64,000 nucleotides of DNA from an uncultured Bacteroidota bacterium (lineage in GTDB: Bacteria > Bacteroidota > Ignavibacteria > Kryptoniales > JAKASW01), in NCBI GenBank assembly GCA_963703365.1, contig OY969815.1, positions 2,888,577-2,952,576 of the forward strand. Reading direction: 5' to 3'. Under the pieces are notes generated by a model. It worked only from the letters and a program-made list of their open reading frames with translations, was not told where the DNA came from and made no database searches. The stretch's first letter is position 1. Each line of letters opens with the position of its first letter. This document shows positions 5,935 through 49,819 of the stretch, piece by piece. A program made the translations under genes and the position numbers.

Positions 5935-6633
5935 CTATTTCAACATCAACATCTTCTTCACCTTGCTCCAATTGTCGGCGCTTATTCTGTAGAAATAAAC
6001 ACCGGATGAGACAATGGTGCTATTTTTATTTATGCCGTTCCACGTTAGCTCAGTATAACCTGCAGGATAATCTGCATCCGCAACTTGTGCCACCTCTCGA
6101 CCCACGATATCGTAGATACTGAGTTTCACATGAGATGCTTTCGGAAGATCAAATGCTATCTTCGTTGATGGATTAAACGGATTAGGAAAGTTATTGTAAA
6201 GCTTATAATCTGTTGGTGCTGCAACTTCGACCGTTATATCTTTTGTCCATTTTTGACCATCTGATGTGCTTATCGTCGCCGTTAATGTCGTATCCTTTCC
6301 AATCGGTGCCTTCTTGTCTACGGAAAATGTGAACTCTGCGTCTCCTGTAGCGTTGGCTGCAATGCTTTTAATGAGCACAGTGTTTTGCGCCAGAGGCGCA
6401 TCCGCCTCTGGCGGAGATTTGAAGTCGAGCCATGTCGGAAGGTGATTGAATGTTACAGAGACATTCTTTGCTTCGAGGCTGGAAGTATTTTGAATATTCA
6501 GGGAAATCGTGTTGCCAGTCGACGCGAACGGTATTTCCCAAACTTGTCCGGTAACGTTCGTCGAAGCGACCTTCGCAGGTTGACCAAATGTGCTAACGGA
6601 AATTGCTAACAATAGGATGACAACGTATTTCAT
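5935..6633 (-). CDS. Secreted protein with T9SS (Por-type) C-terminal sorting domain
   Basis: It has a signal peptide (MKYVVILLLAISVSTFGQ). The C-terminus FPNPFNPSTKIAFDLP...SGVYFYRI is typical of Por_Secre_tail domains. The ORF contains copy 1 of the 26-nt palindrome, read as ADAPLAQ. Confidence 0.7.
   Translation of the reverse strand: MKYVVILLLAISVSTFGQPAKVASTNVTGQVWEIPFASTGNTISLNIQNTSSLEAKNVSVTFNHLPTWLDFKSPPEADAPLAQNTVLIKSIAANATGDAEFTFSVDKKAPIGKDTTLTATISTSDGQKWTKDITVEVAAPTDYKLYNNFPNPFNPSTKIAFDLPKASHVKLSIYDIVGREVAQVADADYPAGYTELTWNGINKNSTIVSSGVYFYRISADNWSKVKKMLMLK
6387..6412 (+). repeat. 26-nt palindromic element, copy 1 (inside ORF 5935-6633)
   Basis: GCGCCAGAGGCGCATCCGCCTCTGGC. The stem GCCAGAGGC/GCCTCTGGC is 9 bp with a 6-nt loop. 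Confidence 0.8.
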
Positions 6634-8291: not shown

Positions 8292-11288
8292 CTATGGCTG
8301 TGGTTGATATGTTTGGGAATTCTGAATAACGCCTGCAGCATAACCTGTTTTCGAGTTCCATCCATTGTACATCTGCAAAAATGCGTTATCATATCCGACG
8401 CTCCAGTTGGTTGTGCCATCAGGGTTTTCGTTCAGTATTTTCTGAAGCAAGAAAAGCTGATGCTTCATGGCAAATGGAAAGAAAACACTGTCCACATTAA
8501 GGTTTTCAGGCACGTGGTGATTGTCTTCTACATATCCACGATCAAGTGTTGTGGGATACATCATCTGCATCAACCCGTAGGAGCTGGCAATCCTTGTCTG
8601 AGCTACGATATTTTCAAGCCCCTTGGTTCCATTTTTTACCCCGCCATTCCACTGGTCGCGAAGATACGTGGTAATCGAATTAAGTGCGTTTGCGATATCA
8701 TCAGAGCTTGGTGATGGCTTATCCCCTTGGAAATGGTTCAAGATGGAATTATAAATTCTCTGAACTGTAACATACCCATACCTTGCAAAGTCCATTGTGC
8801 CATCCGGATTTCTCTTCCCGTATAATATAACCCCGCCCGGCTCAGATGGGCTTGTAAGCTGCGAATACTGGCTAACCATATACCAAACTTTCTCAGGGGA
8901 ACTGGGGTAAGGAATATATTGAGTATGCTGATGGTATGGAACAGGATCACCCGATCCCATATTTGTCGTCACATAGAATGGGCTGTTAGACCACGAGTCT
9001 GGTAATTGTTTGGGCGTTCGACCATTAAATTGCGTGGTAAAAGGTTCATACCTATACTGCGGCGGGTAGCCCAGCCCCGTGACTGGCTTGGATTCACTCG
9101 CGATTTGTCCTCTGATGTCCTGAGGCGGGATGCCATAAAGTCCTCCATTCACGATGCAGATAGAGTCAATGTCAGGGCGATTGTTAAAAACATCGATGGA
9201 ATAGCGCCATGGGTCGCTTGTGCCGAGGCTACTCGGTTTCTTCACCTCTATATCGATGCTCCCTGTTGCCGAGCCGGAAGACGCCGTCAGCAGAACTTTA
9301 TATGTGGTGCCTTGTTGCCAATATCTTCCAACAAGTCGAATCAACCCTGCAGGTAGAGGATTTCCATCCTCATCTTTGTATTCCCAATAAGCTCCCAACC
9401 TATCTCCTGACTCGGCTTGCACTGAAAACTGTGCATTCACCCTATCACTACTTGCTTGGCCCGGATCGGTGAGCTCTTTGATATCCAGCTTCGATGGATC
9501 GTTCGCGTCTGCCATCGCCTCATAATACTTTGTTTCACCGAGAAGAATTGTATGCCCCTCTATCACCACTTCACCGATGCCAAAATTACTCCACGAAAAG
9601 CTGTTCACATCAGAGACCGATTTAGTATTCCCCTTTCCCACGGACGAGACTACTGACATTGTGGGTGACTTAACGCCAGGGCTTTGAGCACGAGGAGTCG
9701 TTACCGTTGATTTCATCCCGCCTTGCAGAGAAGTCTTTGATATCGTATTGGTTGTCAAAGACTTCTGAAGCACCGTAGTCGCACTCTTCTCACCTGTTCC
9801 TTTTCCGCCCGGCTCAGTTGAACTTAACATTGGCGGCCGCGTTCCTACCCTTACCATTGCAACTACTGAATCAGCATCGACGCTATCTGCGGCTATAAAT
9901 CTGAATGGCTGTGAGACATTAGAAAAATACCCCCCAACGCGGCCATCCGATAACAGTATTGCTCCGTAATTCTCTCCACTCGATATCCCAATCTCAAACT
10001 TTTGGCCGGACGAAAAATCGGTCAAGCTGGCGTCTGCATTTCTCTGCTTTACAATAATTGCCACAGTGTCGCCGGGGGAAGCTACCGATGGAGTATCTGT
10101 CACAATCACAGGTGCCGGCAAGACCTGATCTACACCATAGAGGGGTTTGACGTTCTGCCCAGGCACTGCAATCTCTATCTGTATGTTTGTCGGTTGCTGC
10201 GGATCTTCACCATCCGCAATGTATTCGAATTCCCCGTAAGAAAGTGAGCCCCATTCAATGTCCGTCAGTACTTTTCCCTTCATGATTCCAGCTTGCAAAG
10301 TGCCATATTTCATTCCGGCACTGTCAAGCGTTATATCGATGAGGGTAGAATCCGGAATCGTTACGGGAAGATCATAAATATTCCCGGGTTCCAATCCAAT
10401 CCCTTCCTCATCCAGATGTTGGAGAGAACCCGAAGGAACTGATAGGAAATGATCAAAGTACGGCGGTTCAAGGAAGATCGAATTTTCGCTTGTCAAAGTC
10501 CCACTTTGTGCTTGAACTACTATCGAATCACCCAGTGAATCCACCGCTCCTAACCCATCGGCATCGAGCCAAAAGTCGCCTATGCTATCACCAACAGTCG
10601 TAACCGTAGCTCCCAACCCGACATCAACTCCCGTTTGTGAATCCAACCTGTGGAACGATACGTACTGACTACCGGAAACAATAGTCAACGTAACAGGGTC
10701 GGTGTGAGATGACCATGCTGTCGTGCTGCTATCGTCGTAACCCTGTAAGGCGACACTCGCACTCGTGGAGTATCCCTGCATAAGATAACCATAGTTATTA
10801 CTAAGGAGAAGATTAAACTTCGAGAAATAAGGAGTTGCAAAAGCCGCCTCCAAACCAACCATCGAGATCCATGTGCTATCCTCACCCGACTGACCCGAGC
10901 CGCACAAACTCCCCCACGGGTCAGTACCATCGTAATAATAGCTGAAACAGTTGCCCAGGTCAAACGAATGATACAGAGCCAAATACCCCTCATTAATACA
11001 CGGCGTAAAATAATACACACCAGCAACAGGAGACTGGATCTCGCCACTAACAGAGCCGACCGATGAAAAGACCTTGAAATAATTAGGCCCGCTGACTACA
11101 ACTATCGCATCATACGTCGAGTCCTGTAAAGAGAGAGTAAAGCTCAGCACGTGATTATTAGTTCCTCCCACCTCCACTTTTTTCGCCCGACCAGGCGCTA
11201 TCGTTGCGCTCTCCTTGATATGCACCTGCGCTAAAACTGCACTCGTCATTAGAAAGGTAATCGCAAAAACCGCTCCAGCCCTTTTCAT
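8292..11288 (-). CDS. 998-aa secreted protein with a Ser/Thr-rich linker and C-terminal lytic-transglycosylase-like motifs
   Basis: It has a signal peptide. The C-terminal third carries QIASES ... SYGLMQMMYP ... MYNGWN, matching the SLT motif order ES / GLMQ / YNxG. The ES-to-GLMQ spacing is unusually long. Confidence 0.55.
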   Translation of the reverse strand: MKRAGAVFAITFLMTSAVLAQVHIKESATIAPGRAKKVEVGGTNNHVLSFTLSLQDSTYDAIVVVSGPNYFKVFSSVGSVSGEIQSPVAGVYYFTPCINEGYLALYHSFDLGNCFSYYYDGTDPWGSLCGSGQSGEDSTWISMVGLEAAFATPYFSKFNLLLSNNYGYLMQGYSTSASVALQGYDDSSTTAWSSHTDPVTLTIVSGSQYVSFHRLDSQTGVDVGLGATVTTVGDSIGDFWLDADGLGAVDSLGDSIVVQAQSGTLTSENSIFLEPPYFDHFLSVPSGSLQHLDEEGIGLEPGNIYDLPVTIPDSTLIDITLDSAGMKYGTLQAGIMKGKVLTDIEWGSLSYGEFEYIADGEDPQQPTNIQIEIAVPGQNVKPLYGVDQVLPAPVIVTDTPSVASPGDTVAIIVKQRNADASLTDFSSGQKFEIGISSGENYGAILLSDGRVGGYFSNVSQPFRFIAADSVDADSVVAMVRVGTRPPMLSSTEPGGKGTGEKSATTVLQKSLTTNTISKTSLQGGMKSTVTTPRAQSPGVKSPTMSVVSSVGKGNTKSVSDVNSFSWSNFGIGEVVIEGHTILLGETKYYEAMADANDPSKLDIKELTDPGQASSDRVNAQFSVQAESGDRLGAYWEYKDEDGNPLPAGLIRLVGRYWQQGTTYKVLLTASSGSATGSIDIEVKKPSSLGTSDPWRYSIDVFNNRPDIDSICIVNGGLYGIPPQDIRGQIASESKPVTGLGYPPQYRYEPFTTQFNGRTPKQLPDSWSNSPFYVTTNMGSGDPVPYHQHTQYIPYPSSPEKVWYMVSQYSQLTSPSEPGGVILYGKRNPDGTMDFARYGYVTVQRIYNSILNHFQGDKPSPSSDDIANALNSITTYLRDQWNGGVKNGTKGLENIVAQTRIASSYGLMQMMYPTTLDRGYVEDNHHVPENLNVDSVFFPFAMKHQLFLLQKILNENPDGTTNWSVGYDNAFLQMYNGWNSKTGYAAGVIQNSQTYQPQP

Positions 11289-11353
11289 CGCACAACCCTC
11301 TTTTATGTTGATTTATCTTGTTAAACTAAGTCAACTGAACCATAGGCTCATCT

Positions 11354-11379
11354 GCGCTGAAGGCGCATCAGCCTCTGGC
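11354..11379 (+). repeat. 26-nt palindromic element, copy 2 (intergenic, degenerate left arm)
   Basis: GCGCTGAAGGCGCATCAGCCTCTGGC, upstream of the minus-strand 998-aa gene. Confidence 0.7.
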
Positions 11380-11626
11380 CGAAGCCTAAGGCTGAAAAAA
11401 CCACCTTAATATTGGTGCTTGGGAAGCTCTCTTTTTACAATAACATAAGAAGGAATGAATGTCAATAGGAACACACAAAAATGTTTGTCCACGTGAACTC
11501 CATCACACAGGGAACTTTTTGCTCGAAAGTCGGAAACACATTAAAAGATTCGTTGCATGTAGTCGGCATAAAATCTAAAAAAGGGAAAAGCGGAAGGACA
11601 ACCCTAAACAACCCAGCGCTCACAAT

Positions 11627-17727: not shown

Positions 17728-17756
17728 TTGACATTATAACATGGGACGGCTATATT
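17728..17756 (+). promoter_or_regulatory. Sigma-70-type promoter candidate for the S41 peptidase gene
   Basis: TTGACA, a 17-nt spacer, then TATATT. It lies 65 nt upstream of the ATG at 17821 and directly follows a heptamer array. Confidence 0.55.
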
Positions 17757-17820
17757 TTTTCAAGATGATAAAGGGCTGTTTGGAATTATCGAAGACAGGA
17801 ATAATTGCAGATCGGAAAAC

Positions 17821-18873
17821 ATGAGGCAGAAAAAACTCCTCGTTAAACTTTTATTCCTTTCTCTTTTGATTTTGTCTTCTTGTAAAAAGGAAGACAATCC
17901 GGGTGGGATCACACCGCCAGACAATGAGAATACACCGCAAAACAATTTCAATGTCCTCTGGAATGATTTCGATCAAAATTATCCGGTATTTGAATTGAAT
18001 GATATTAATTGGGACTCTGTCTATTACGTTTATTATCCGAAGATAACTTTAAATACCACCGATGCCGATCTTTTTAATATTTTAAAGTCATGCATCTTGA
18101 CATTGAAGGATGCTCACTCGGACATAATTTCAAATCAATTCGGAAGCTGTGATTATTACGATTTATTTGTTCAACAAAAACCGACTAATTTTATAAGCTG
18201 GAATCTGATCAGCTCAAAATATGTCCAGGTACTAAAATCTAATAACCAGCATTTGGCTTACGGGAAAGTGCTCAACGAGGACATAGGGTATTTCTTTATC
18301 GGGAGCTTTGACGACAGCGCAAGTAATTATTATCTGATAGATTCTCTTCTTACAGTATTTCAAAATTCAAAGGGGATAATAATAGATGTAAGACAAAATG
18401 GCGGCGGCAATGAGACGTACGCCCAGATTGTGGCAAGCAGGTTGACAAATACATCTGTGATTTATCGATATTACAGAGAAAGAAATGGCCCGAAGCATTC
18501 CGACCTAACCGGTTACTTTCCGGTAGTTTTGGTTCCTGGCGGGCCGATCAAGTACACAAAGACGGTCGTATTGCTCACCAGCCGGCGAACATTCAGTGCT
18601 GCCGAGGATTTTACTTTAATGTTGAAGAGCTTGCCGAACGTAATTCATATCGGCGATACGACATTCGGAGGTGTCGCAACAAATCCGATCACTAAAACCC
18701 TGCCGAATGGTTGGACATACCGTATGGCAAGAGCAATTGAATGTGACAACAATGAAGTTCCGATAAAGAACGGAATTGTCCCGCAGATTCCGGTTCAGAT
18801 TAGTAAAGCCGATTCAATTCAGGGCGTCGATAGGATTCTTGAAGAAGCCATAAATAAAATAAATGGAAACTGA
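17821..18873 (+). CDS. S41-family (tail-specific/tricorn-core-like) peptidase lipoprotein
   Basis: Lipobox LILSSC; IIDVRQNGGGN; TSRRTFSAAEDF, which is the S41 catalytic Ser context. Confidence 0.75.
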   Translation: MRQKKLLVKLLFLSLLILSSCKKEDNPGGITPPDNENTPQNNFNVLWNDFDQNYPVFELNDINWDSVYYVYYPKITLNTTDADLFNILKSCILTLKDAHSDIISNQFGSCDYYDLFVQQKPTNFISWNLISSKYVQVLKSNNQHLAYGKVLNEDIGYFFIGSFDDSASNYYLIDSLLTVFQNSKGIIIDVRQNGGGNETYAQIVASRLTNTSVIYRYYRERNGPKHSDLTGYFPVVLVPGGPIKYTKTVVLLTSRRTFSAAEDFTLMLKSLPNVIHIGDTTFGGVATNPITKTLPNGWTYRMARAIECDNNEVPIKNGIVPQIPVQISKADSIQGVDRILEEAINKINGN

Positions 18874-18991: not shown

Positions 18992-19020
18992 TTGATATTA
19001 CAAGATGGAGCGGCTATATT
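18992..19020 (+). promoter_or_regulatory. Sigma-70-type promoter candidate for the ImmA-XRE/DUF4411 operon (paralogue of 17728-17756)
   Basis: TTGATA, a 17-nt spacer, then TATATT. The spacer is 13/17 identical to the copy at 17734-17750. Confidence 0.55.
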
Positions 19021-19201
19021 CATGTGAGATGACTAACCGCCCACGGCTTAGGCAGGACGGGATCCTCCGGAAGGGCGATCGGAGATCATCGAAAGGAAAG
19101 GTACGATTGCAAGATCAGGAGATGTTGCGGCAGGAAGTAGTTTACACAATTACCATAGACCAACAAAACAAACTTAATTCTTATTATCTTTAAGACACAA
19201 A

Positions 19202-24428: not shown

Positions 24429-24445
24429 TGTAATTTATTTCTTTT

Positions 24446-24471
24446 GCGCCCAAGGCGCATCAGCCTCTGGC
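24446..24471 (+). repeat. 26-nt palindromic element, copy 3 (fur stop / fur-feoA spacer)
   Basis: GCGCCCAAGGCGCATCAGCCTCTGGC. The fur stop codon (complement of 24460-24462) lies in the loop. Confidence 0.8.
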
Positions 24472-24975
24472 TGAATCACGTGCATCGTTCTTTTGACATT
24501 CCGAACACAATCCGAATATCTGGTGCGAATGACTTAGTAATCGAAACTTGAATCTCTTCGCAATGCTTTGCTGAGCGGCTTCAATATTTTTGTCGACGAA
24601 CTCGGTGATCTTTCCGCAATTGATGCACACAAGATGATCATGATGTGTGCGGCCGAATGCCTTTTCGTAACGTGAGCCATGATCTTTAAGTCTGGTTTTG
24701 AATACAAGCTTGCACTTTTCGAGAACGTCGAGCGTGTTATAAACTGTGGCCCTTGACACTTTGCTGCCGTCTTCTTTCAGCTTGAGGAACAATTCGTCTG
24801 CATCGAAATGACCGGTTGCCGTATTCACGGCATTAAGGACTTCAAAGCGTTCGGAAGTTACTCGGTAGCCTTCTTTTCGCAGAAATTCTTCTAACTTTTG
24901 TTTTGCTGTTTCCATCCCGCGGTCATATTTTAAATTAAGTCTAAGTAAGTTATCTGTATCAGGCATAGAGTTCAA
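24460..24975 (-). CDS. fur: Fur-family metalloregulator (start uncertain: TTG 24975, ATG 24966 or ATG 24915)
   Basis: Winged-helix segment RVTSERFEVL...SRATVYNTL; metal sites HHDHLVCINCG and CSEC. The stop codon lies in the loop of 26-nt palindrome copy 3. Confidence 0.85.
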   Translation of the reverse strand: MNSMPDTDNLLRLNLKYDRGMETAKQKLEEFLRKEGYRVTSERFEVLNAVNTATGHFDADELFLKLKEDGSKVSRATVYNTLDVLEKCKLVFKTRLKDHGSRYEKAFGRTHHDHLVCINCGKITEFVDKNIEAAQQSIAKRFKFRLLSHSHQIFGLCSECQKNDARDSARG

Positions 24976-25026
24976 GCCCTCCCGAACTACTTCCGAAGCG
25001 TAACGATTCTTTATCTCTATTCGTAC

Positions 25027-27285: not shown

Positions 27286-27443
27286 CTATTCCTTACGCGT
27301 CCTTTCAAGTTGTTATTTGTTAAGACTTAATCTAAGTAAAGATAGAGTTGCCGGGTGCTATTGTCAAGGGAAAGGTGGTCCTCTTTGGTCACCGTCGTGG
27401 CGAGTCGCCTCGTTCGTTGCAACGATATTTATTACACAACGTA

Positions 27444-27480
27444 GAGTAACCAAATTGACAGATGAGCGATTTGGTTACTC
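27444..27480. other. Perfect 12-bp inverted repeat (hairpin or operator) between the TonB receptor gene and bfr
   Basis: GAGTAACCAAAT - 13 nt - ATTTGGTTACTC. Confidence 0.5.
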
Positions 27481-27567
27481 TGATAAATCGCGATTCAAGA
27501 CGGCGGGGTGTACCACCCTGGAACAAGATGACAGATCACCCCGTCGAACCCAGATAAAAACTATTCT

Positions 27568-28032
27568 TTACTTCTGCTGAGATAAATAGTTTTGTATTCC
27601 CATCTGTTTGATTTGATCCATTTGGGCTTCGAGCCAATCAACATCGTCCTCTTCGTCGAGCAGGTTAGATTTGAAAAGTTCGCGCGTGCCGTTATCTCCG
27701 GCCTCCGTGCACACCCGCATACTCTCATTGTAAGATTTCACTGCGGACTTCTCTGCCTCGTAATCTGATTTCAACTGGGCTTCAACGTCCTTGCCTATGT
27801 TGATCGGATTGAGCGTACTAACGTTGGGTTTGCCTTCAAGATAAAGAATACGTTCGATGATTTTTTCTGCGTGCTTCATCTCATGGATAGCTCTCTTCTC
27901 GATCGCTTCGTGAAGTCTGGCATATCCCCAATTCGCGCACATCTCAGCGTGGACAATGTATTGGTTGATAGCTGTGAGTTCCTCTGCCAGACGGAGGTTA
28001 AGTATTCGGATAATCTGTTTGTTGCCTTCCAT
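27568..28032 (-). CDS. bfr: Bacterioferritin
   Basis: Ferroxidase ligand pattern in LNLRLAEELTAINQYIVHAEMC...HEMKHAEKIIERILYLEG; 154 aa. Confidence 0.9.
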   Translation of the reverse strand: MEGNKQIIRILNLRLAEELTAINQYIVHAEMCANWGYARLHEAIEKRAIHEMKHAEKIIERILYLEGKPNVSTLNPINIGKDVEAQLKSDYEAEKSAVKSYNESMRVCTEAGDNGTRELFKSNLLDEEDDVDWLEAQMDQIKQMGIQNYLSQQK

Positions 28033-28224
28033 GATCTTCTCCTTTTTTGGGGTTACGGTTGCTATTTAAAATTATGTGGTCTCCGCTAAAATCGCAAGAT
28101 ATTCTAAATATGGTTGACGCCGACGCAGTTGTCATATTCGAAGGAAGGAACCCGCCAACCCCGGAATTACCGGGGCTCACGATTTCTTCAAACATGATAT
28201 ATTTCGATCTGGCCGCGGCCGCGA

Positions 28225-28286
28225 GTCAGCTAACTCCGGCGCCGATATGCCGCCCGGTGGAACTGGTTGTTAGCTGACCTTTTTTT
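28225..28286 (+). other. 10-bp perfect inverted repeat with T7 tail in the bfr-katG spacer
   Basis: GTCAGCTAAC ... (34 nt, GC-rich) ... GTTAGCTGAC C TTTTTTT. The T-tract is on the plus strand although both flanking genes are on the minus strand. Confidence 0.5.
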
Positions 28287-28323
28287 GCCGCCCTTTCAGA
28301 AGCCCTGAAAGACATCTATGCTA

Positions 28324-30528
<2,205 letters not shown>

Positions 30529-30697
30529 TCATGTCAATCTCCCTTCGATGTTAATCTGGGTTATTCAAAAAAAGTTGGCCATCAATACGCGAGTGCACCG
30601 CTGCGAAAAAACCTGCGCGTCACTCTCTGCATTTCCGTTTCATTGGTCAGCGTTCCATTGCCATTTGAATTTTCTTCTTTTTTGTCTAACAGTTGAC

Positions 30698-30719
30698 AGT
30701 AATAATAAGAATCATTACT
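30698..30719. promoter_or_regulatory. AT-rich palindromic box, candidate Fur/PerR-family operator upstream of katG
   Basis: AGTAAT-aataagaatc-ATTACT. The stretch AATAATAAGAATCATTACT matches 14/19 positions of the classical Fur box GATAATGATAATCATTATC by my alignment. It lies about 195-215 nt upstream of the katG ATG. Confidence 0.3.
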
Positions 30720-30950
30720 AATATATGTTGATGGTGACTGAATGTCAAGGCGAAAATTTGGCCAATATTCCGATAAGCGAAGCCTTCAGATGCACCACTA
30801 ATCCTATCCTTCGAGATTTTATCCAGCACAGCAGACAAACTTCTCGAACCGATCTGCACAATCTATCCCCTTTCGGCGAATCACCCAAACGTAACTCTAT
30901 AATGTAAGCCATTTGTAGTTTCAGAGAAAATAACGAGATGGTTTTGGCTT

Positions 30951-31874
30951 GTGAGTTTAGTAAATTATTCACAGGTGAGCGAGAACGCACTCAAAATATT
31001 GACGCCGAAATTTATTTCTCAACTGTCGGGCATGGAGATGCGGGCGAGGCTGATAGTTGAGGGATTTCTCGTCGGAATGCACAGGAGCCCGTACCATGGC
31101 TTCAGCGTCGAATTCGCTGAACATAGGCAGTATTTTGCAGGCGACGATATAAGCAACATCGACTGGAAAGCATTCGGGAGAAGCGATAGACTTTATATAA
31201 AACAGTACGAAGAAGAAACAAATCTCAAGGCATACGTCCTTATTGACGGGAGCGGCTCGATGGGATTCAAGCGTGACGGTGAAATCACTAAACTTGAATA
31301 CGCTTCTTATCTTGCGGCCGGTTTGATTTATTTAATGATGAAACAACAGGATGCAACGGGACTGGCAATCTATGACGAAACGATCAGACGTTTTTTTGAG
31401 CCGCATCTCACTTACTCGTACATGAAGCTTCTTTTAACCGAGTTGTCCGGTCTCGAAGCGAATTCAAAAACATCGACCGCAACTGCGCTTTCGTCTCTCG
31501 CCGAAAGAATAAAACGCCGCGGACTCATCATCGTTATAAGCGATTTTCTCGATGAGACAAAAAGCGTTATTACTGCGCTGAAACATTTTCGTCATCGGAA
31601 AAACGAAGTCATAGCGTTCCATGTTCTCGACGACGCCGAGATCAATTTAGATTTTCCGGGTGATGCCATGTTTACGGACCTTGAAACAGGAGAACAAATT
31701 GCGACGCAGGTTTCCGCGTTGAAGTCGGCATACAAAAAAAGTGTGAACAGTTTTATTCGTAATTTGAAGAGCAAATGTTTTGAGAACGACATTGACTATG
31801 TGCTTCTAAGCACCTCGACACCGTTCGATAAGGCGTTGACGGCGTATCTTACAAGAAGAAAGAAAATATTTTAA
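30951..31874 (+). CDS. DUF58 (vWA-like, MoxR-associated family) protein; start uncertain
   Basis: SPYHGFSVEFAEHRQYFAGDDISNIDWKAF...RLYIKQYEEE is the DUF58 signature. Confidence 0.8.
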   Translation: MSLVNYSQVSENALKILTPKFISQLSGMEMRARLIVEGFLVGMHRSPYHGFSVEFAEHRQYFAGDDISNIDWKAFGRSDRLYIKQYEEETNLKAYVLIDGSGSMGFKRDGEITKLEYASYLAAGLIYLMMKQQDATGLAIYDETIRRFFEPHLTYSYMKLLLTELSGLEANSKTSTATALSSLAERIKRRGLIIVISDFLDETKSVITALKHFRHRKNEVIAFHVLDDAEINLDFPGDAMFTDLETGEQIATQVSALKSAYKKSVNSFIRNLKSKCFENDIDYVLLSTSTPFDKALTAYLTRRKKIF

Positions 31875-33077
31875 ATGGAGACCGTGATATTAGCAGTCAT
31901 TGCGATAATTCTCGTCGTCATAATTTTTATCTTTATCCAATTCAAAAGTTTATCGACGAAGCAGCAGTCATCCTCAGAACAGGCTGTTCAGCTTTTCACG
32001 ATTTTCAAATCTGATGTTGAGTCTGCGGTCAAATCGGCTGCCGAGACAACTCGTTCCAACAACGAAAATATGGCAAGCACGCTGAGGCTTGTCAGCGATT
32101 CACTGTCGAAGAGTTTGGATGACAACCGCGCCGGCACAAATGCTCAGGTTGAGCAGCTCGCAAATCAAGTGTCCCAGCTTGCTGGCTTAGTCGGCAAGCA
32201 AGTTGAGAATCTGCGCGGGTCAGTGGAAGAGCGGCTCACAAACTTCAGTTCTCAACTTGGCGGCCAGCTTTCCGAGGCGAACAAACTTTTTTCGTCATTG
32301 AAGCAAGATTTCGGTGAGCTGAAGGAATCGAGCAGCAACATGCTCGAGATCGGGAAGCAGATAAACCAACTGCAGAACATTTTAAGTTCGCCAAAGCTTC
32401 GAGGCAATCTTGGCGAGACGCTTCTTGAAGAATTGATCAAGCAAGTCATACCACAAGGCTTCTACGAATTTCAATACACGTTTCGCGACGGCTCAAAAGT
32501 GGATGCGATCATAAAAACTTCCGAAAGAATAATTCCCATAGACTCGAAATTTCCGAAGGATGAGTTCGAACGTTACGTTAATGCGGAAAATGAGTCTGAA
32601 AAAAATAGCGCCATGACGAAATTTTCGAAAGTGATGAAGGATCAGATCGACGACATTGCGGAGAAGTATATTAAGCCGACCGAAAACACGTTCGACTTTG
32701 CAATCATGTTCATACCTTCAGAGAGCATGTACTACGAGATTTTGATGCAGGATGGAGATGAGAACGGCGCGTATCGTTACGCCATGAAGAAGCATGTGAT
32801 CCCCGCATCGCCGAACAGTTTTTACGCATACATTCAGGCGATTGCAATCGGGCTCAAGGGGATGCAGATCGAAAAGAACGCTCAATTAGTCCGCGACCAG
32901 CTTGCCCAGCTGGAAAATTCTCTTGTAAAGTTTGACGATCATTTCGAGACGCTCGGCACACATCTAAAGAATGCGGCGAATAAGTACAACGATTCACACG
33001 AAGCGCTCGGAAGATTCAGAGAAAGGCTTCAGGCAATTGCGAAGTTAGAAGATAAAGAGCCGCCGAAGATTGTGTGA
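31875..33077 (+). CDS. rmuC: DNA recombination protein RmuC
   Basis: N-terminal TM segment plus coiled coil. RGNLGETLLEELI and the C-terminal RmuC nuclease-like region (MFIPSESMYYE). Confidence 0.85.
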   Translation: METVILAVIAIILVVIIFIFIQFKSLSTKQQSSSEQAVQLFTIFKSDVESAVKSAAETTRSNNENMASTLRLVSDSLSKSLDDNRAGTNAQVEQLANQVSQLAGLVGKQVENLRGSVEERLTNFSSQLGGQLSEANKLFSSLKQDFGELKESSSNMLEIGKQINQLQNILSSPKLRGNLGETLLEELIKQVIPQGFYEFQYTFRDGSKVDAIIKTSERIIPIDSKFPKDEFERYVNAENESEKNSAMTKFSKVMKDQIDDIAEKYIKPTENTFDFAIMFIPSESMYYEILMQDGDENGAYRYAMKKHVIPASPNSFYAYIQAIAIGLKGMQIEKNAQLVRDQLAQLENSLVKFDDHFETLGTHLKNAANKYNDSHEALGRFRERLQAIAKLEDKEPPKIV

Positions 33078-33121: not shown

Positions 33122-33146
33122 CGTCAGCTTGAGCCACTGGTTAGGC
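33122..33146 (-). repeat. attC-like half site (R''-L'' arm only) at the distal end of the cassette array
   Basis: The minus strand reads GCCTAAC-CAGTG-GCTCAAGC-TGACG, starting 7 nt after the stop of ORF 33154-33651. It is 24/25 identical to 33797-33821. I found no matching L'-R' arm towards rmuC. Confidence 0.55.
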
Positions 33147-33153
33147 GGTGCGT

Positions 33154-33651
33154 TTATTTTTCTTTATGAATTAAAGTTGATAATCTAATACCGAACTTCA
33201 TCTCATTTTTTATATTTTTTGTGAAACCAGTTGCTTCAAGTGAATCTGGCGGAATCAATTTGAAATTAGAAGTCACGGGTTCAACAGTTTTATTGATGCT
33301 AATAAGTTCATTAGTGCTTACAGAATAAATAAATGTGAATGCTTGCCATGGTTGATGCCCACCAGAGCTTAGCATACCAAAAACAAAAAACTGCGAATTG
33401 GCTGTCCATTCCGCTTGAACCACACCATACCCATGCTCGTGATCTTTTGATGCATAATTTGTATCTAATATAACTTTCCCTTTATGGTTAAATATTTGAA
33501 TCCTACTTTCAAGTAAAACTCCCCTCTCGGCAATATTATAAACAATAGCACGCATGTTCTTATCAGGAGAAATGAATTCGCGCATATTCCGCGCCGCAAC
33601 GAATGAAATAAAAATAAATAGACTGAGCAATATTTTTATTTGTATTGACAT
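33154..33651 (-). CDS. Cassette ORF 1: small secreted protein of unknown function
   Basis: It has an N-terminal signal/anchor (ILLSLFIFISFVAA). attC-like sites flank it at 33122-33146 and 33672-33821. Confidence 0.6.
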   Translation of the reverse strand: MSIQIKILLSLFIFISFVAARNMREFISPDKNMRAIVYNIAERGVLLESRIQIFNHKGKVILDTNYASKDHEHGYGVVQAEWTANSQFFVFGMLSSGGHQPWQAFTFIYSVSTNELISINKTVEPVTSNFKLIPPDSLEATGFTKNIKNEMKFGIRLSTLIHKEK

Positions 33652-33671: not shown

Positions 33672-33821
33672 GCCTAATGGACTGGAGCTAAGCTGCGGCG
33701 ACGTGCAGCCAGTTCCACGTAGAATACACGCGCGAGAGACATTGCCAATTCCCTAAATTTTCTTTTGCGCGCGGCCAAATCATCGACGGCTGGTTCCGTC
33801 AGCTTGAGCGACTGGTTAGGC
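33672..33821 (-). repeat. attC-like site, about 150 nt (long class)
   Basis: Minus strand: GCCTAAC-CAGTC-GCTCAAGCTGACGG ... CCGCAGCTTAGCTCCAGTCC-ATTAGGC. The arms pair with two single-base bulges (G33806, T33799) on one arm. Confidence 0.6.
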
Positions 33822-33834
33822 AGTTTTTGCATAA

Positions 33835-34431
33835 TTATGGCAACACTTCAACAGTCGTTTTAAATAATGTATTTTGATTTACCCACGCTGGAATTTCCGA
33901 GTTTGTTTGTTCCATAAAGTGGAGCAATATTTTACTGGCAACATCGGATGCAAACTTCCAATCTCTTTTTGTAAAAACGTGACCGAAAATCTTGTTCACC
34001 TTATCAGGTTCGGAAGATGGATGAGCTACGAAATCTCGAGTCACCTTGACAACTTGTAGAAAATCATTCCAGAGAGTTTGATCTTTTAAATGAATTGCCT
34101 GAATGCCAAGAATCTCAGCTAGCACCTTTAGTTGTTCTTTGACTTCTTTTAAATCTGAATTCATTAAATGTTCAAAGCCCTGCGCCTTCGGATATTTCAA
34201 TTGGAGAAGCTTATCACTCGCGTTCCATATATCCCACAATTGCTCTGAAGCAAATGCTTGGATTGTCATGTATGCAAAAAAATATGCCTGAGATACAAAG
34301 GCGAATATAAATGTACCTGGCAAATAAGATTCTTCATTGCTGATGGTTTTGGGAATACCTTTTATGGGATCATATATGAACGCGCGAGATTGTTCCAAAT
34401 AAGATTGAACCGGCAGAATTTCAGTTTTCAT
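33835..34431 (-). CDS. Cassette ORF 2: helical protein with an Rx4H (RDFVAH) HEPN-like motif
   Basis: 198 aa, no signal peptide. The motif VKVTRDFVAHPS sits in the C-terminal half. The ORF is bracketed by a perfect 15-bp inverted repeat (33815-33829 / 34450-34464). Confidence 0.6.
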   Translation of the reverse strand: MKTEILPVQSYLEQSRAFIYDPIKGIPKTISNEESYLPGTFIFAFVSQAYFFAYMTIQAFASEQLWDIWNASDKLLQLKYPKAQGFEHLMNSDLKEVKEQLKVLAEILGIQAIHLKDQTLWNDFLQVVKVTRDFVAHPSSEPDKVNKIFGHVFTKRDWKFASDVASKILLHFMEQTNSEIPAWVNQNTLFKTTVEVLP

Positions 34432-35008: not shown

Positions 35009-35207
35009 CACCCAAAGAACCGGAGCTAAACTGCGTGCGGTAGAATATTGAATAACAATCTGCGGCGCCCCGTTACTCCGATATTATTTATTTGTTGAAT
35101 GGAAATTTACTTGGTGAAACTCGTAAATACAACTAAACTTTTGTGGCTCGTGAGGCTGTGAATTTTCGTACACCGCAATTTCAGTTAGCTCGAGCGATTA
35201 GTCAGGC
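35009..35207 (-). repeat. Decayed attC-like site, about 200 nt (long class)
   Basis: Minus strand: GCCTGAC-TAATC-GCTCGAGC... and a far arm ...CAGTTTAGCTCCGG... homologous to 33672-33700. The inner stem is retained (GAGCTAA(A)CTG / CAGTTAGCTC) and the R box is degraded. Confidence 0.45.
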
Positions 35208-35222
35208 ATTTACATGGCGAAC

Positions 35223-35663
35223 TCATAGCAAGCGTAGAGCATAGATCAGCGCTATCAATGATGCTGCGATAAGAATGGGCGATGAATAGACTCCAGGCAG
35301 AAAATGTCTCTTATAGAGGGAACTTCCAACATGTCCGAGGCCGTTGCCGATCATCATTATGGAAAACGGCACCGCCGCTATGATGATCCATCTCGTACCG
35401 CGAAAGGCAAATGGGCTTAACACGAGCAAAAATCCTACCAGGGCGGACAAACCGGCGATCCAAACTCGAAAGGAAAACGTCGGCAGCGGAATCCACGGAA
35501 ACCTTTGACGAAGCGCCCGCACCGTTGGATTGTAAACCGCCAGAAAGTCCGTGATAGCCTCGTCGGCCACATGAAGAGCCAAGGCTCCCGCCAGTCCGAG
35601 CCAAGACCAGCCAAAATGGACTGTCTCAACTGACCACCATCTTGGGTTATATAGAGGGTTCAT
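35223..35663 (-). CDS. Cassette ORF 4: small polytopic membrane protein, HXXEE-domain-like (HVADE)
   Basis: Four hydrophobic segments and the LHVADEAITDF motif. It is GC-richer than its neighbours and spawns shadow ORFs. Its ATG lies 1 nt after the GTTAGAC core. Confidence 0.55.
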   Translation of the reverse strand: MNPLYNPRWWSVETVHFGWSWLGLAGALALHVADEAITDFLAVYNPTVRALRQRFPWIPLPTFSFRVWIAGLSALVGFLLVLSPFAFRGTRWIIIAAVPFSIMMIGNGLGHVGSSLYKRHFLPGVYSSPILIAASLIALIYALRLL

Positions 35664-36578: not shown

Positions 36579-37406
36579 TCAGCCAACAACCGGGTTCATA
36601 TTGCGGCTACGATTCATATAAATGTCATCAAGAATTTCGCCGGCATCATTTGAAAAATTCGCGTCAAGCATGTCTTCAAAGCCGTTTTTAACAGCTTCTT
36701 TTATTTCAGTGAACTCTATCTTTTGCGCCAGAGGCGCATCAGCCTTTGGCTGACTTTTCAGAATTTCTGTCAACGTCGTGGTGTGCGAATCAAGATCACT
36801 CAACGTTTTCTGTTTGAGTTTGTCATCGACGTTAAGATATTTGACGATTTGCTTGTGAAAGTTTCCGATCAGGATCGAGCCATGCTGAAGTAAGACATCG
36901 CCGAATCTGTGTTGTGCACTGCCGACAAGTTTTTTGCCATGCCATTCGACTTCGTAAACAGCGGAAGTCGAGAAACACGGTATCGTAGAAGGATCATGGA
37001 ACAGCTTGCGGAAATCGGTCGAGCTTTGGGATAATTCCAAATCCGCAACAAGAGTTCGAAGGCCTTCGGCGAGAGCGTTACTGATTAAATTATAGCTATC
37101 GCGAATCGGCAATCCACCTGTGCTCATTACGACGGAATAAGTCAACTCATCCGCATGGAGAACAGCCTTTCCGCCGGTAGGCCGCTTCACGACTTCGATG
37201 CCATCTTGTCCGGCAAGCTCAACGATTATATCTGAGTCGTTTTGATTCTTGCCGAGCGAAATGCAGAAGGGTTTCCAGCGGTAAAACCTGAGAATGGGTG
37301 TGTGATCAATTTTGAATTCATCCACAAGCCGGAGGTCGAAGTCCATGTTAAACCTCCCGTCGTGCTCTCCCGTGTCGATGCAATTCCACAGCACAACATC
37401 GCTCAC
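36579..37406 (-). CDS. Biotin/lipoate A/B protein ligase family protein (LplA/LipM-like)
   Basis: RRPTGGKAVLHADELTYSVV and GKKLVGSAQHRFGDVLLQHGSILI. The ORF contains 26-nt palindrome copy 4, read as ADAPLAQ. Confidence 0.7.
   Translation of the reverse strand: MSDVVLWNCIDTGEHDGRFNMDFDLRLVDEFKIDHTPILRFYRWKPFCISLGKNQNDSDIIVELAGQDGIEVVKRPTGGKAVLHADELTYSVVMSTGGLPIRDSYNLISNALAEGLRTLVADLELSQSSTDFRKLFHDPSTIPCFSTSAVYEVEWHGKKLVGSAQHRFGDVLLQHGSILIGNFHKQIVKYLNVDDKLKQKTLSDLDSHTTTLTEILKSQPKADAPLAQKIEFTEIKEAVKNGFEDMLDANFSNDAGEILDDIYMNRSRNMNPVVG
36725..36750 (+). repeat. 26-nt palindromic element, copy 4 (inside lipoate-ligase-family ORF)
   Basis: GCGCCAGAGGCGCATCAGCCTTTGGC, preceded by TTTT as in copies 1 and 3. 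Confidence 0.8.
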
Positions 37407-47426: not shown

Positions 47427-47800
47427 GTTAGTTCCTTTTGATTTCTGTGGAAATAAAGTGAGGGATACTATTCATCTCTTTCATCGTTTGCTAAGGTAAA
47501 ATAAAATCCATGACTCAAACTTCCAAAGTTGAACTATATGCTAAAAATGCCTGCCGTCCCGCATACGGGATCATTGATTGAAATTCCGAGTCATTACTTT
47601 TATATTCACGAAACAAAATGAAATCTGAATTCACCGGATTAAAGAATTGTCAGAATGAAATCGGAAGATAATAATCCGGAAAATCCTGTGATTCAGAAAA
47701 TCCTATTCGAGGGGCAAACAAATTTTCTTTTAATTAAAAAATTGCACCTGAAAGGTTCTGAAAACCTGTTAGGTCCATGCAACTAAAAAAGGAGCTACTC

Positions 47801-49819
47801 ATGGCTGAGGAAGTCCGAACAACTTCGAGCACGCAGTCTTATGTGCCTGCCGAAACCACGATGAAAGAATTTACTGTTAGAGCGCTGCTGCTTGGCTTGG
47901 TAATGTGTGTCATACTCGGCGCGGCGAACGCTTACCTGGGTCTGAAAGCCGGAATGACTATCGCCGCAACTTATCCTGCGGCTGTTATCGGAATGGCAGT
48001 GCTTAGAATAATGAAAGGCAGTCTGCTTGAAGAAAATTTTGCCAGAACCGTCGGTGCAATAGGCGAATCGATTGCAGCGGGCGCGGTGTTTACGATTCCC
48101 GCATTTTACATCGCCGGTATCTGGAAGCAATTTGACAGCACGCACTACTTAGAAGCGACTTCGATCATGTTCGTCGGAAGCGTCGTCGGAATTTTGTTTG
48201 TCACGATTCTCAGGCGTGTCATGGTCGAAGACCGTGAGCTTCCGTTTCCGGAATCTGTGGCGGCGTCAGAAATTCACAAGGCCGGTCGAAGCGGCGGCAC
48301 CGGCGCGAAGTATCTCTTCAGCGCCATGGGACTGGGTGGTGTCATTCAGGCACTTGGACAACTCAACTTCTTTGCTGCTGCATGGGAAAGGTTTATTAAG
48401 TTTACTCCGCTGTCATTGTCGCTGAAGAATGGAACAGGAACATCTGCAGTTCAATCAGGCGGCGGCGCGCTCATCACGACGCCTGGCGTCAGCCCGGCGT
48501 ATATCGGGGTTGGCTACATCATCGGACCGAGACTCTCCGCGTTGAACTTCAGCGGCGGACTCTTAAGCTGGGGACTTTTTGTTCCGCTTCTTCTTTACTT
48601 TGTCGGACCGAGCGCACTTCCCGCCGATGCCTCGCAAGACGCATGGATTGCACTCAGCTATTCGGTTTGGTTGACGCTCGTTCGTCCGATTGCAATCGGT
48701 GGAATGCTTTTCAGCGCGGCATACACGCTTTATAAAATGAGGAACAGCTTGGCAGTCGGCATCGGCCGCGCGATTTCAGATGTTAAGAAATCCGCCGCAG
48801 GTGGAAAGGTAGAGATCAGAACGGAGCGCGACATGGACTTCAGATATGTCGGCGGTGGAATTCTCCTCGCGGGAATCGCAACATTTTTCATATATAATCA
48901 TTTCGCGCACAGCGTTTCAGCCGCTCTTACCGCAACGGTTGTCATGCTCGTCGCTGGGTTTTTCTTTGCCGCGGTATCCGGCTATCTCGTCGGAATAATC
49001 GGCTCTAGCAACAACCCCGTCAGCGGACTGACGATTTCTACTTTGCTGATAGCTGCACTATTGATGGTGGTTCTCGGACAAACGGGTGTTGCCGGCGTTG
49101 CTGCAGTGCTCGGCGTAGCCGCAGTGGTGTGTGTTGCAGCTGCTGTCGCGGGCGAGATGCTGCAGGATTTGAAAGTCGGGCACATCATCGGTGGTACACC
49201 ATGGAAGATGCAGGTTGGCGATTTGATCGGCGTTCTCGTCGGGTCAGCAGTTATGTTTGTTCCGCTGATGATTTTAAATCAGGGCGACATTAACCAAGGG
49301 GGCACCGGGTTCGGCGGACGGAATCTTCCGGCGCCGCAAGCTGGTATGATGGCTGCCCTGGCGCAGGGAATCGTCGGCGGACACATGGCGTGGCCGCTCA
49401 TCATTGTCGGAATATTGATGGCTTTCGGATTCATCATCAGCGGCGTGAAAAGCCCGATGCTCGTCTTTGTCGGAATGTATTTGCCTTTCGGAACCGTAGC
49501 AGCGATATTCGTCGGCGGATTGGTTCGCGGTATCGTGGACATGGTTGCGAAGGCGCGGAAATTCAATGAAGCACAGACAGGTCGTGTCGAAAACACAGGA
49601 ATACTGATTTCTTCCGGCCTCATTGCAGGTGAAGCGTTGACGGGACTCGTCTTTGCCGCACTTGCATTCTACGACATAAAGTGGATTTCGATTTTCGCAG
49701 TTCCGAGTTTCGGGATCAGCTTGCTCGTGTTTTTGCTGCTCGCGTTAGTTTTGATTTACTATCCGATTCGCAACGCGGGTTCGCCGGATCAGCCGGCACC
49801 GCCGAAAGCGGCGATGTAA
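47801..49819 (+). CDS. OPT-family oligopeptide transporter
   Basis: About 16 TM segments. N-terminal EFTVRALLLGLVMCVILGAANAYLGLKAGMT is OPT-like. I placed the start at the ATG at 47801, preceded by AAGGAG. Confidence 0.85.
   Translation: MAEEVRTTSSTQSYVPAETTMKEFTVRALLLGLVMCVILGAANAYLGLKAGMTIAATYPAAVIGMAVLRIMKGSLLEENFARTVGAIGESIAAGAVFTIPAFYIAGIWKQFDSTHYLEATSIMFVGSVVGILFVTILRRVMVEDRELPFPESVAASEIHKAGRSGGTGAKYLFSAMGLGGVIQALGQLNFFAAAWERFIKFTPLSLSLKNGTGTSAVQSGGGALITTPGVSPAYIGVGYIIGPRLSALNFSGGLLSWGLFVPLLLYFVGPSALPADASQDAWIALSYSVWLTLVRPIAIGGMLFSAAYTLYKMRNSLAVGIGRAISDVKKSAAGGKVEIRTERDMDFRYVGGGILLAGIATFFIYNHFAHSVSAALTATVVMLVAGFFFAAVSGYLVGIIGSSNNPVSGLTISTLLIAALLMVVLGQTGVAGVAAVLGVAAVVCVAAAVAGEMLQDLKVGHIIGGTPWKMQVGDLIGVLVGSAVMFVPLMILNQGDINQGGTGFGGRNLPAPQAGMMAALAQGIVGGHMAWPLIIVGILMAFGFIISGVKSPMLVFVGMYLPFGTVAAIFVGGLVRGIVDMVAKARKFNEAQTGRVENTGILISSGLIAGEALTGLVFAALAFYDIKWISIFAVPSFGISLLVFLLLALVLIYYPIRNAGSPDQPAPPKAAM

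Follow-up and report, generated by a model that had tools for sequence, protein, structure and literature searches.

The 64,000-nt stretch analysed here (64 kb, referred to as the window) comes from contig OY969815.1 of an uncultured Bacteroidota bacterium. An earlier note on it had remarked that one palindrome, at 36716-36756, is read in the same frame, as ADAPLAQ, in two unrelated proteins. We propose that this palindrome is a copy of a selfish mobile element of 30 nt, here named E, which consists of two adjoining hairpins and inserts at TTY|RAA-like sites without target duplication, preferably in hairpin loops. We put the probability of this reading at roughly 0.7. The double-hairpin form of the element, its spread across phyla and its link to genes for tRNAs and for nucleases of the GIY-YIG family all go beyond what the earlier note saw.

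Element E and its four copies in the window

E is built of two adjoining, GC-rich hairpins of 15 nt, each with a 6-bp stem and a 3-nt loop: hairpin A, TGCGCC-NNN-GGCGCA, is followed by hairpin B, TC[C/A]GCC-NNN-GGC[G/T]GA. Within the palindrome it occupies 36724-36753 (TGCGCCAGAGGCGCATCAGCCTTTGGCTGA). If up to 3 mismatches are allowed, the window contains the 23-mer GCTGATGCGCCTCTGGCGCAAAA three times, against none expected from 100 dinucleotide shuffles, and the full 33-mer likewise occurs three times, again with none expected from dinucleotide shuffles. A repeat search of the window (repeat family D1) added a fourth, degenerate copy. The copies, numbered 1-4 by position, all share one orientation, and when the four are aligned, conservation does not reach beyond a core of about 30 nt.

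Copy 4 (36724..36753, + strand; TGCGCCAGAGGCGCA|TCAGCCTTTGGCTGA, hairpin A then hairpin B) lies inside an open reading frame (ORF) on the - strand that encodes a lipoate-protein ligase family protein (36579..37406; PF21948 and PF03099, LplA-B_cat domain). Copy 1 (6386..6415, + strand; TGCGCCAGAGGCGCA|TCCGCCTCTGGCGGA) lies inside a - strand ORF for a secreted protein with the C-terminal sorting domain of the type IX secretion system (T9SS) (5935..6633; PF18962, Por_Secre_tail). Copy 3 (24445..24474, + strand; TGCGCCCAAGGCGCA|TCAGCCTCTGGCTGA) is found between fur and feoA, and the degenerate copy 2 (11353..11382, + strand; TGCGCTGAAGGCGCA|TCAGCCTCTGGCCGA) is old and lies in intergenic DNA, 65 nt upstream of a 998-aa ORF (8292..11288, - strand), with a third GCC-NNN-GGC unit (AGCCTAAGGCT) after it.

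Copies 3 and 4 are each predicted to fold into two hairpins (-12.3 kcal/mol, z about -5, and -12.2 kcal/mol, z = -5.0, respectively), and the predicted fold of copy 2 is weak (z = -1.1). Copy 1 has complementary loops, so that a single 11-bp hairpin is also possible for it (-16.2 kcal/mol, z = -6.4). One long hairpin was rejected as the general form of E: the loops are complementary in 8 of the 97 listed copies from the genome scan described below, against about 12 expected on an estimate from loop frequencies, and the unit is therefore two separate hairpins. No Rfam family matched anywhere in the window at gathering thresholds, and a permissive Rfam search around copy 4 gave a chance match to VrrA alone (E-value 0.36). 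GC skew gave no usable replication-strand signal in the 64 kb.

Filled and empty sites in orthologous genes

The two coding copies are translated as SQPKADAPLAQK in the ligase, where E reads (S)QPKADAPLAQ, and as PPEADAPLAQN in the T9SS-tail protein, where it reads (S)PPEADAPLAQ. The first base of the codon for the initial alanine is 663 nt from the ORF start in copy 4 and 228 nt in copy 1, both multiples of 3, which confirms that the codon phase is the same. With these two copies alone, a common frame would arise about one time in two, since a TGA interrupts the third frame of that strand; the preference for one frame reaches significance at the level of the family only. The alignment of orthologues, which had been named beforehand as the test of whether the shared peptide marks an insertion, comes down on the side of insertion at both sites.

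Among 31 aligned ligase homologues (43-97% identity), 29 LplA-family orthologues (43-80% identity) show a clean gap of exactly 10 residues, SQPKADAPLA. Besides the window, the 10-residue insert is present in one 97%-identical sequence and, in decayed form (ELKPDAHPGH), in one 77% relative. At the DNA level, an 80%-identical orthologue (L119; loci are referred to by such numbers throughout) has an empty site, ...AAGAG|ACAAAT..., and the window has the same flanks with exactly 30 nt added and no target duplication; another locus (L120) carries a decayed E at the ligase site that retains 22 of 30 positions. The T9SS-tail protein has an orthologue in a Candidatus Kryptoniota metagenome-assembled genome (MAG) (L025; 79% nucleotide identity by BLAST, 83% mean column identity by MAFFT), and this gene lacks exactly 30 nt at the site of copy 1. 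It has instead a 30-nt E of its own, about 30 codons into the gene and in the opposite orientation, which reads APEAHQPLAA; the window is empty there (GCTTC|GACG). This reciprocal pattern implies that one pair of orthologous genes took up E twice, independently and with exactly 30 nt added each time. All three filled/empty comparisons thus give exactly 30 nt and no duplication; the empty sites of copies 1 and 4 are CTA|GAT and TGT|CTC. In neither the ligase nor the T9SS-tail alignment did palindrome-free orthologues show a conserved ADAPLAQ-like segment. E is a discrete insertion of 30 nt, which one close relative may have and another lack, and which decays once inserted. E-bearing sites were found again in independent JGI, ENA, Logan and NCBI assemblies.

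The earlier note had also expected the peptide to sit in a loop, and for copy 4 structure prediction agrees. In an AlphaFold2 model of the ligase with a mean predicted local distance difference test score (pLDDT) of 84, residues 224-231 are modelled as coil between helices 220-223 and 232-247, and the insert itself, residues 221-230, has a pLDDT of 58, compared with 89 and 95 in the neighbouring blocks. A single-sequence AlphaFold2 model of the T9SS-tail protein (mean pLDDT 42.6) was too poor to place copy 1 in a loop. Taken together, these comparisons make it highly probable that copies 1 and 4 are lineage-specific, translated, mobile insertions of 30 nt.

Copy 3 is not an in-frame insertion, since it begins where the fur stop codon ends. 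Two further loci, L121 (Fur 98% identical) and L122 (84%, with hairpin A decayed), have E at the fur site, and in both the fur TGA immediately precedes it. Relative to L121, the 3' end of fur in the window has a 1-nt deletion at 24475-24480 (CAGTGA to C-GTGA), which removes the normal stop, so that the Fur-family ORF of the window (24460..24975, - strand) runs 5 codons into E and ends at the TGA of hairpin B, taking its last 5 codons (DSARG*) and its stop from copy 3. Beyond fur, the two loci also differ over 24975-31900: a DUF58 gene adjoins fur in L121, and in the window a gene for a TonB-dependent receptor and a 726-aa ORF intervene. This is a strain-level structural difference.

Occurrence of E across phyla

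A scan of 185,579 species-representative GTDB genomes with the loose pattern GCCNNNGGCNGATGCGCCNNNNGCGCA gave at least 118 loci. About 20 of the 118 listed are chance matches in high-GC genomes (Nocardia, Cyanobium, Burkholderiaceae), and in genomes of at most 50% GC no more than about 4 chance matches are expected. At least 97 copies are well formed, having the full double-hairpin form at the positions that the pattern leaves unspecified as well as at those it fixes. An independent set of metagenome contigs, scanned with the full pattern, gave at least 132 copies in at least 120 contigs, and the two scans together hold upwards of 220 well-formed copies, from at least 12 phyla. All hosts in the GTDB scan are MAGs. 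Hosts include Patescibacteria (many classes), Omnitrophota, Ignavibacteriota, Bacteroidota and Kryptoniota, as well as Chloroflexota, Zixibacteria, Verrucomicrobiota and the wider PVC (Planctomycetes-Verrucomicrobia-Chlamydiae) group, Planctomycetota, WOR-1, one Nanoarchaeota bin and one Nitrososphaera bin. By contrast with cellular genomes, 2.9 million viral contigs gave one match, 50,697 phage genomes none, and 72,556 plasmids a partial chance match only.

Throughout the family the stems are conserved and the loops variable, loop A being purine-rich (AGA, AAA, GGA) and loop B pyrimidine-rich (TCT, TTT, TTC, TCC). The pair formed by positions 3 and 13 of hairpin B, which the pattern leaves free, covaries: it is C-G in 61, A-T in 31 and something else in 5 of the 97 listed GTDB copies, and C-G in 89, A-T in 37, T-A in 4 and unpaired in 2 of the 132 listed metagenome copies. 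Distant variants keep the architecture with other stems, for example TTCGCC...GGCGAA (L127) and TTCC-AAA-GGAA|TCCC-TTG-GGGA (L130). In one Ignavibacteriota MAG, the two copies of an IS110-family transposase gene each have E about 15 nt before the start codon (L002 928-957; L040 7109-7138), so that E there is also carried by, or has entered, another mobile element; a third IS110-family gene is found in an E-bearing locus (L098) of another Ignavibacteriota MAG.

E inside proteins

Because it is exactly 30 nt long, E never shifts the reading frame. A copy was counted as coding if each end of the ORF was at least 40-50 codons away, and 50 such cases were found among the listed copies. The frame [S/P]-P-[K/E/Q]-A-D-A-P-x-A-Q accounts for 18 of the 50 (binomial p = 8e-4 against 1/6), in a set that includes some spurious ORFs which cross T-loop contexts or belong to high-GC loci. 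The two arginine-rich frames are rare outside these spurious ORFs, and frames containing a stop are avoided among coding copies. Such a bias, with avoidance of stop frames, is expected under selection on the translated peptide and not under excision at the RNA level.

Two of the host proteins are essential enzymes. In the leucyl-tRNA synthetase (LeuRS) of a Saccharibacteria MAG, E reads SPPKADAPQAQ and belongs to about 21 residues that are extra relative to Thermus thermophilus LeuRS; the insert stands just before a catalytic-core motif (LPVNLYTGGAEH in the MAG protein, aligned to MPVDQYIGGVEH). In the Tgt of an Omnitrophota MAG it reads TPPQADAPTAQ, and, measured against the solved bacterial Tgt with the top score (PDB 6ygl), the protein has 17 extra residues. 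Other E-bearing proteins are a Mpl/MurC-like ligase, an M1 peptidase, a threonine-synthase-like protein, a POT transporter and a DUF819 membrane protein. That E is both mobile and translated is well supported.

The Saccharibacteria LeuRS gene (L072, 1680-1740) also shows E flanked by a 14-nt direct repeat (GAAATTAGAAATTC), and similar but imperfect flank repeats occur in L037 and L070; some insertions of E are evidently not clean. One long ORF (L236) carries two copies of E, at 3778-3807 and 3816-3845, which are 8 nt apart and read in different frames.

Target sites

When all copies are oriented with hairpin A before hairpin B, their flanks give the two-fold symmetric consensus TTY|RAA. Of the 97 listed GTDB copies, 75 have a T at position -2 and 79 an A at position +2, where C never occurs; the 107 listed metagenome copies from outside T-loop contexts agree, 84 of them having A and none having C at +2. 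TTY|RAA is the central palindrome of the tRNA T-loop, and accordingly the exact T-loop site GGTTC|E|GAATCC holds 17 of the 97 listed GTDB copies and 25 of the 132 listed metagenome copies. Other sites include D-loops (GGTT|E|GAAT, L043), the tips of unrelated stems, and the loop of another E (CCGCCTCT|E|GGCGG in L050, L058 and L091). Among the 80 listed GTDB sites outside T-loops, 10 have a flanking stem of at least 5 bp, compared with a mean of 2.3 and a maximum of 6 for shuffled flank pairings. E occurs in both orientations, as the gene pair shared by the window and L025 demonstrates.

Cassettes of tRNA genes and GIY-YIG nuclease genes

Every E-bearing tRNA examined, by ARAGORN and by direct reading, proved to be a partial duplicate beside an intact copy of the same tRNA. 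In one arrangement, tRNA(1-56)|E|GAATCC is followed, after about 13 nt, by an ATG-initiated ORF of the GIY-YIG family and then by the intact tRNA (L093, L096, L100, L021); in the other, the intact tRNA comes first and is followed by the GIY-YIG ORF and by a partial tRNA, ...GGTTC|E|tRNA(57-76) (L061, L045, L059). E lies 13-20 nt upstream of the GIY-YIG start codon in the cassettes. Two loci, L043 and L061, contain tandem arrays of cassettes, and nuclease-free versions are found in L171 and in L034, the latter from Kryptoniota, the phylum of the closest relatives of the window. The cassette ORFs encode 81-86 aa, comprising the GIY-YIG catalytic domain alone (PF01541, E-values 1e-14 to 1e-16).

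All-against-all clustering of about 2,700 ORFs from the 97 listed E loci returned GIY-YIG as the sole recurrent non-generic family, in 11 loci, apart from the IS110 transposase in the three Ignavibacteriota loci already mentioned. Of 13 GIY-YIG ORFs in the GTDB set, 12 lie within 130 nt of E, one of these being over-extended across its copy of E; in the metagenome set, 16 such ORFs were found in 13 listed loci, 15 of them within 400 nt of E. The association was also approached from the other side. Six GIY-YIG homologues were picked by protein similarity alone, which removes selection bias from the link, and each of the six has as neighbours an intact tRNA gene and a duplicate of that gene disrupted by a hairpin. 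The disrupting hairpins are a canonical E in the T-loop in three cases, a low-GC double-hairpin variant in the T-loop in one, and in the remaining two a single TCCGCC-NNN-GGCGGA hairpin that replaces 10 nt of the anticodon arm. A GIY-YIG ORF between an intact tRNA and a hairpin-interrupted fragment is thus present in at least 11 + 13 + 6 loci outside the window, and it is probable, though less firmly so than the insertion of copies 1 and 4, that the E family is functionally tied to these cassettes.

Further single hairpins occur in the D-loop and the anticodon loop of some pseudo-tRNAs (L125, L126, L153). The window too contains a single hairpin, at 48791-48805 (TCCGCCGCAGGTGGA), which is of the hairpin-B type with one G:T pair and lies inside an ORF (47777..49819, + strand) where it is read as SAAGG; this may be half an element on its own, as in the anticodon arms of pseudo-tRNAs, or a chance occurrence.

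Proposed mechanism and alternative explanations

A route by which E might spread can be proposed from these arrangements. The 81-86-aa GIY-YIG nuclease would cut DNA resembling TTC|GAA, the archetype of which is the tRNA T-loop, so that its putative substrate would be GGTTCGAATCC-like DNA. Insertion of the cassette would restore an intact tRNA, and in the displaced fragment the cut site would be split by E, which, we propose, makes the fragment no longer cuttable. The intact copy might then be re-cut and repaired from the pseudo-copy, giving rise to tandem arrays. In the repair of off-target cuts at TTY|RAA, E would be copied in from a GGTTC|E|GAATCC donor by way of 3-6 nt of microhomology, leaving an exact 30-nt patch that protects the site from further cutting. 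Copies that happened to fall in tolerant loops and to read as a harmless peptide, most commonly in the frame [S/P]-P-[K/E]-A-D-A-P-x-A-Q, would survive and be translated, and copies 1 and 4 would be survivors of this in-frame, tolerated type.

Copying into a break would explain the exact length, the lack of target duplication, both orientations at a symmetric target and the T-loop-like consensus of the flanks. It would also explain less tidy features, namely the hairpin that replaces 10 nt of the anticodon arm and the extra sequence around E in LeuRS and Tgt; judged from the sequences, these suggest a better fit to break repair than to precise transposition. We nevertheless hold this specific cut-and-patch mechanism as tentative, at somewhat less than an even chance. 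A wider version of it is, if anything, slightly more doubtful: that E is the footprint of a nuclease-driven 'immunising patch' system, in which a minimal GIY-YIG nuclease homes into the T-loop, whose universal conservation lets the cassette cross phyla, and perhaps domains, and the patch is copied from that cassette, a genome being driven to acquire the patch because only patched sites would stop being cut.

Several points weigh against reading E as a selfish element spread in this way. The nuclease activity, the cleavage site and the repair pathway are all steps that we infer. The intact tRNA in each cassette keeps the presumed target, and copies from one and the same genome vary in their loops, which would not be expected had all simply been copied from a single donor. 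The window has neither a GIY-YIG ORF nor a tRNA gene in its 64 kb, its copies being solo elements, so that action in trans must be assumed; about 88% of the listed copies of E likewise have no GIY-YIG ORF within 400 nt. The conservation of stem sequence across phyla needs either horizontal spread or some constraint. As to the taxonomic range itself, the flanks of E in the Nitrososphaera bin (L036) and in a Bacteroidota bin (L063) are homologous over at least 40 nt on each side, which suggests mis-binning or a shared mobile region, and binning errors in MAGs may inflate the apparent range.

The main rival is mobilisation by a transposase of the Y1/HUH tyrosine type. E would then be a minimal, non-autonomous relative of the repetitive extragenic palindromes (REP) and bacterial interspersed mosaic elements (BIME), or a palindrome-associated transposable element (PATE) of the IS200/IS605 kind, moved as single-stranded DNA by a REP-associated tyrosine transposase (RAYT) or a TnpA encoded elsewhere, and its link to GIY-YIG and tRNA genes would be secondary. 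The hairpin ends, the absence of target duplication and insertion beside a short T-rich motif would all suit such an enzyme, as would the preference for hairpin loops, which suggests single-stranded targets, and the one orientation common to the four copies in the window. Yet no Y1/HUH family recurs among the roughly 2,700 ORFs of the 97 listed E loci, where GIY-YIG does, and IS200/IS605 insertion is strand-specific, whereas the target of E is symmetric and one gene shows E in both orientations. With its 30 nt, E is also far below the known size of PATE, and REP keep to single lineages and to extragenic DNA, whereas E crosses phyla and is found within ORFs. On this balance we consider a transposase of this kind unlikely.

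A second possibility is that E is not selfish at all and is a functional cis-element, an operator or a pair of hairpins that stabilises or processes RNA, kept for the benefit of the host and found in ORFs by accident. Copy 3, retained between fur and feoA in three lineages, would fit this, as would the position of E shortly upstream of the GIY-YIG start codon in cassettes and the compensatory changes that keep the stems paired. A beneficial element would not be expected to come and go between close relatives at three sites, to decay after insertion, or to occur in contexts as mixed as ORFs, pseudo-tRNAs, intergenic DNA and the loops of other copies of itself; moreover E has no U-tract for termination and matches no Rfam family. 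This explanation is accordingly very unlikely.

Still less probable is that E is a mini-intron removed at the RNA level, an idea raised by its exact placement in tRNA T-loops and D-loops and by a superficial likeness to the non-canonical tRNA introns of archaea. Each E-bearing tRNA examined is a partial duplicate with an intact copy beside it; coding copies show the reading-frame bias and avoid stop frames; and bulge-helix-bulge geometry is absent. A self-cleaving variant of the idea, in which a flank stem and the two hairpins form a hammerhead-like ribozyme, was checked by inspecting the sequence against the invariant core, CUGANGA and GAA flanking helix II, and was rejected: E reads C-[U/G]-G-A-U-G-C and then stem, A9 is missing, U4 is variable, and there is no Rfam match. 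Finally, the suggestion that the shared ADAPLAQ was inherited as a protein motif, arose by convergence or is an artefact of assembly has the initial similarity alone in its favour and is refuted by the filled/empty orthologue comparisons, with their clean indels, by identity at the nucleotide level that extends to synonymous positions, and by the recovery of the sites in independent assemblies, so that we give it next to no weight.

Comparison with known elements and implications

Full-text literature searching, which left most subscription journals outside its reach, found no description in bacteria or archaea of such an element or of a cassette combining GIY-YIG, tRNA and hairpins. The earlier note had likened the palindrome to the Rickettsia palindromic elements (RPE), reportedly described by Ogata and co-workers in 2000. 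RPE are about 100-150 bp long, are confined to Rickettsia and are not double 15-nt hairpins; they are translated and are tolerated in surface regions of proteins. The likeness holds for behaviour, E being likewise a palindromic selfish repeat that lies in frame in unrelated protein-coding genes, and fails for family, since E is exactly 30 nt long and is spread over at least 12 phyla, not one lineage. We know of no link between RPE and nuclease or tRNA genes.

In architecture E is closest to the double-hairpin elements (DHE) of fungal mitochondria, which are known from Allomyces, other chytrids and Schizosaccharomyces; near-identical copies occur across species, and copies are intergenic or lie in genes for rRNA (Paquin et al. 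2000, as cited in PMC10085805 and PMC7218506). The comparison is one of descriptions and not of sequences: in both cases two adjoining GC-rich hairpins span a few tens of nt and are present or absent between relatives. DHE are described from mitochondria only, and PMC10085805 and PMC7218506 do not report them in frame in proteins or in tRNA T-loops; the hosts of E, in contrast, are bacterial and archaeal MAGs. E might be a bacterial counterpart, or the ancestor, of these mitochondrial elements. More loosely, it resembles the GC clusters of yeast mitochondria and the repetitive hairpin-forming elements of sponge mitochondria (PMC4478555, PMC2800124). These too are short, mobile, GC-rich hairpins in an AT-richer genome, mostly in intergenic DNA or rRNA genes and occasionally in protein genes, but they are organellar and belong to other sequence families. 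Yeast GC clusters have preferred target motifs of their own, and to our knowledge neither they nor the sponge elements have been linked to a tRNA-targeting nuclease.

Among bacterial repeats, REP are extragenic and species-specific, with a 5' GTAG beside the palindrome, and RAYT genes are flanked by REP; IS200/IS605 elements recognise hairpins and insert, without target duplication, 3' of a fixed tetra- or pentanucleotide on one strand. E shares with REP/BIME and PATE the form of a small hairpin repeat, and with IS200/IS605 the absence of target duplication. It differs from REP/BIME in that two of the four copies in the window, and dozens elsewhere, lie inside ORFs, in that its flanks are TTY|RAA and not GTAG, and in that no Y1/RAYT family recurs near it, the neighbourhoods of the listed loci, not whole genomes, having been compared. 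Set beside PATE, E has the hairpins and lacks the duplication, but its target is loose and symmetric and a single gene shows it in both orientations; no Y1 family recurs among the ORFs around the listed copies. From classical miniature inverted-repeat transposable elements (MITE) it differs in having no target-site duplication in the three filled/empty comparisons.

The cassettes find their nearest parallel in SegB of phage T4, a free-standing GIY-YIG homing endonuclease encoded in a tRNA gene region, which drives the inheritance and segmental amplification of that region in T-even phages (PMC13096335). In both systems a GIY-YIG gene is lodged among tRNA genes, and the amplification parallels the tandem cassettes of L043 and L061. 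SegB is larger, is encoded by phage and has a DNA-binding part, whereas the cassette proteins consist of the 81-86-aa catalytic domain alone and belong to cellular genomes. We know of no hairpin module associated with SegB.

If E is what it appears to be, then at 30 nt it is, as far as we know, among the smallest mobile elements, and one of the few with copies in many bacterial phyla, possibly also in archaea. GIY-YIG genes wedged into tRNA genes point to a homing system aimed at the T-loop, which is among the most conserved sequences in biology; were this correct, a 30-nt sequence would be spreading by break repair, without a transposase, into essential proteins such as LeuRS and Tgt. E provides a concrete source for some of the lineage-specific indels seen in proteins from MAGs, as 10-residue loops in Saccharibacteria LeuRS, Omnitrophota Tgt and the LplA-family ligase, and its insertions are a possible marker of recent divergence. 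Gene callers, tRNA finders and alignment pipelines will mishandle E sites, and the pseudo-tRNA fragments can be mistaken for intron-bearing tRNA genes.

Other repeats in the window

Two further repeats were noted in the window. A 28-nt direct repeat (GCCTAACCAGTSGCTCAAGCTGACG, - strand) occurs at 33122-33149, 33797-33824 and 35183-35210, in each case 5-12 nt downstream of the stop codon of one of three consecutive small ORFs on the - strand (33154..33651, 33835..34431 and 35223..35663). Its predicted folds are weak, and the repeat may represent a common 3' element or a further family of repeats. A 41-nt repeat (TTGAYATTAYAASATGG..CGGCTATATT; repeat family D10) lies at 17728-17768 and 18992-19032, upstream of + strand ORFs that start at 17821 and 19202, and looks like a putative shared promoter or operator.

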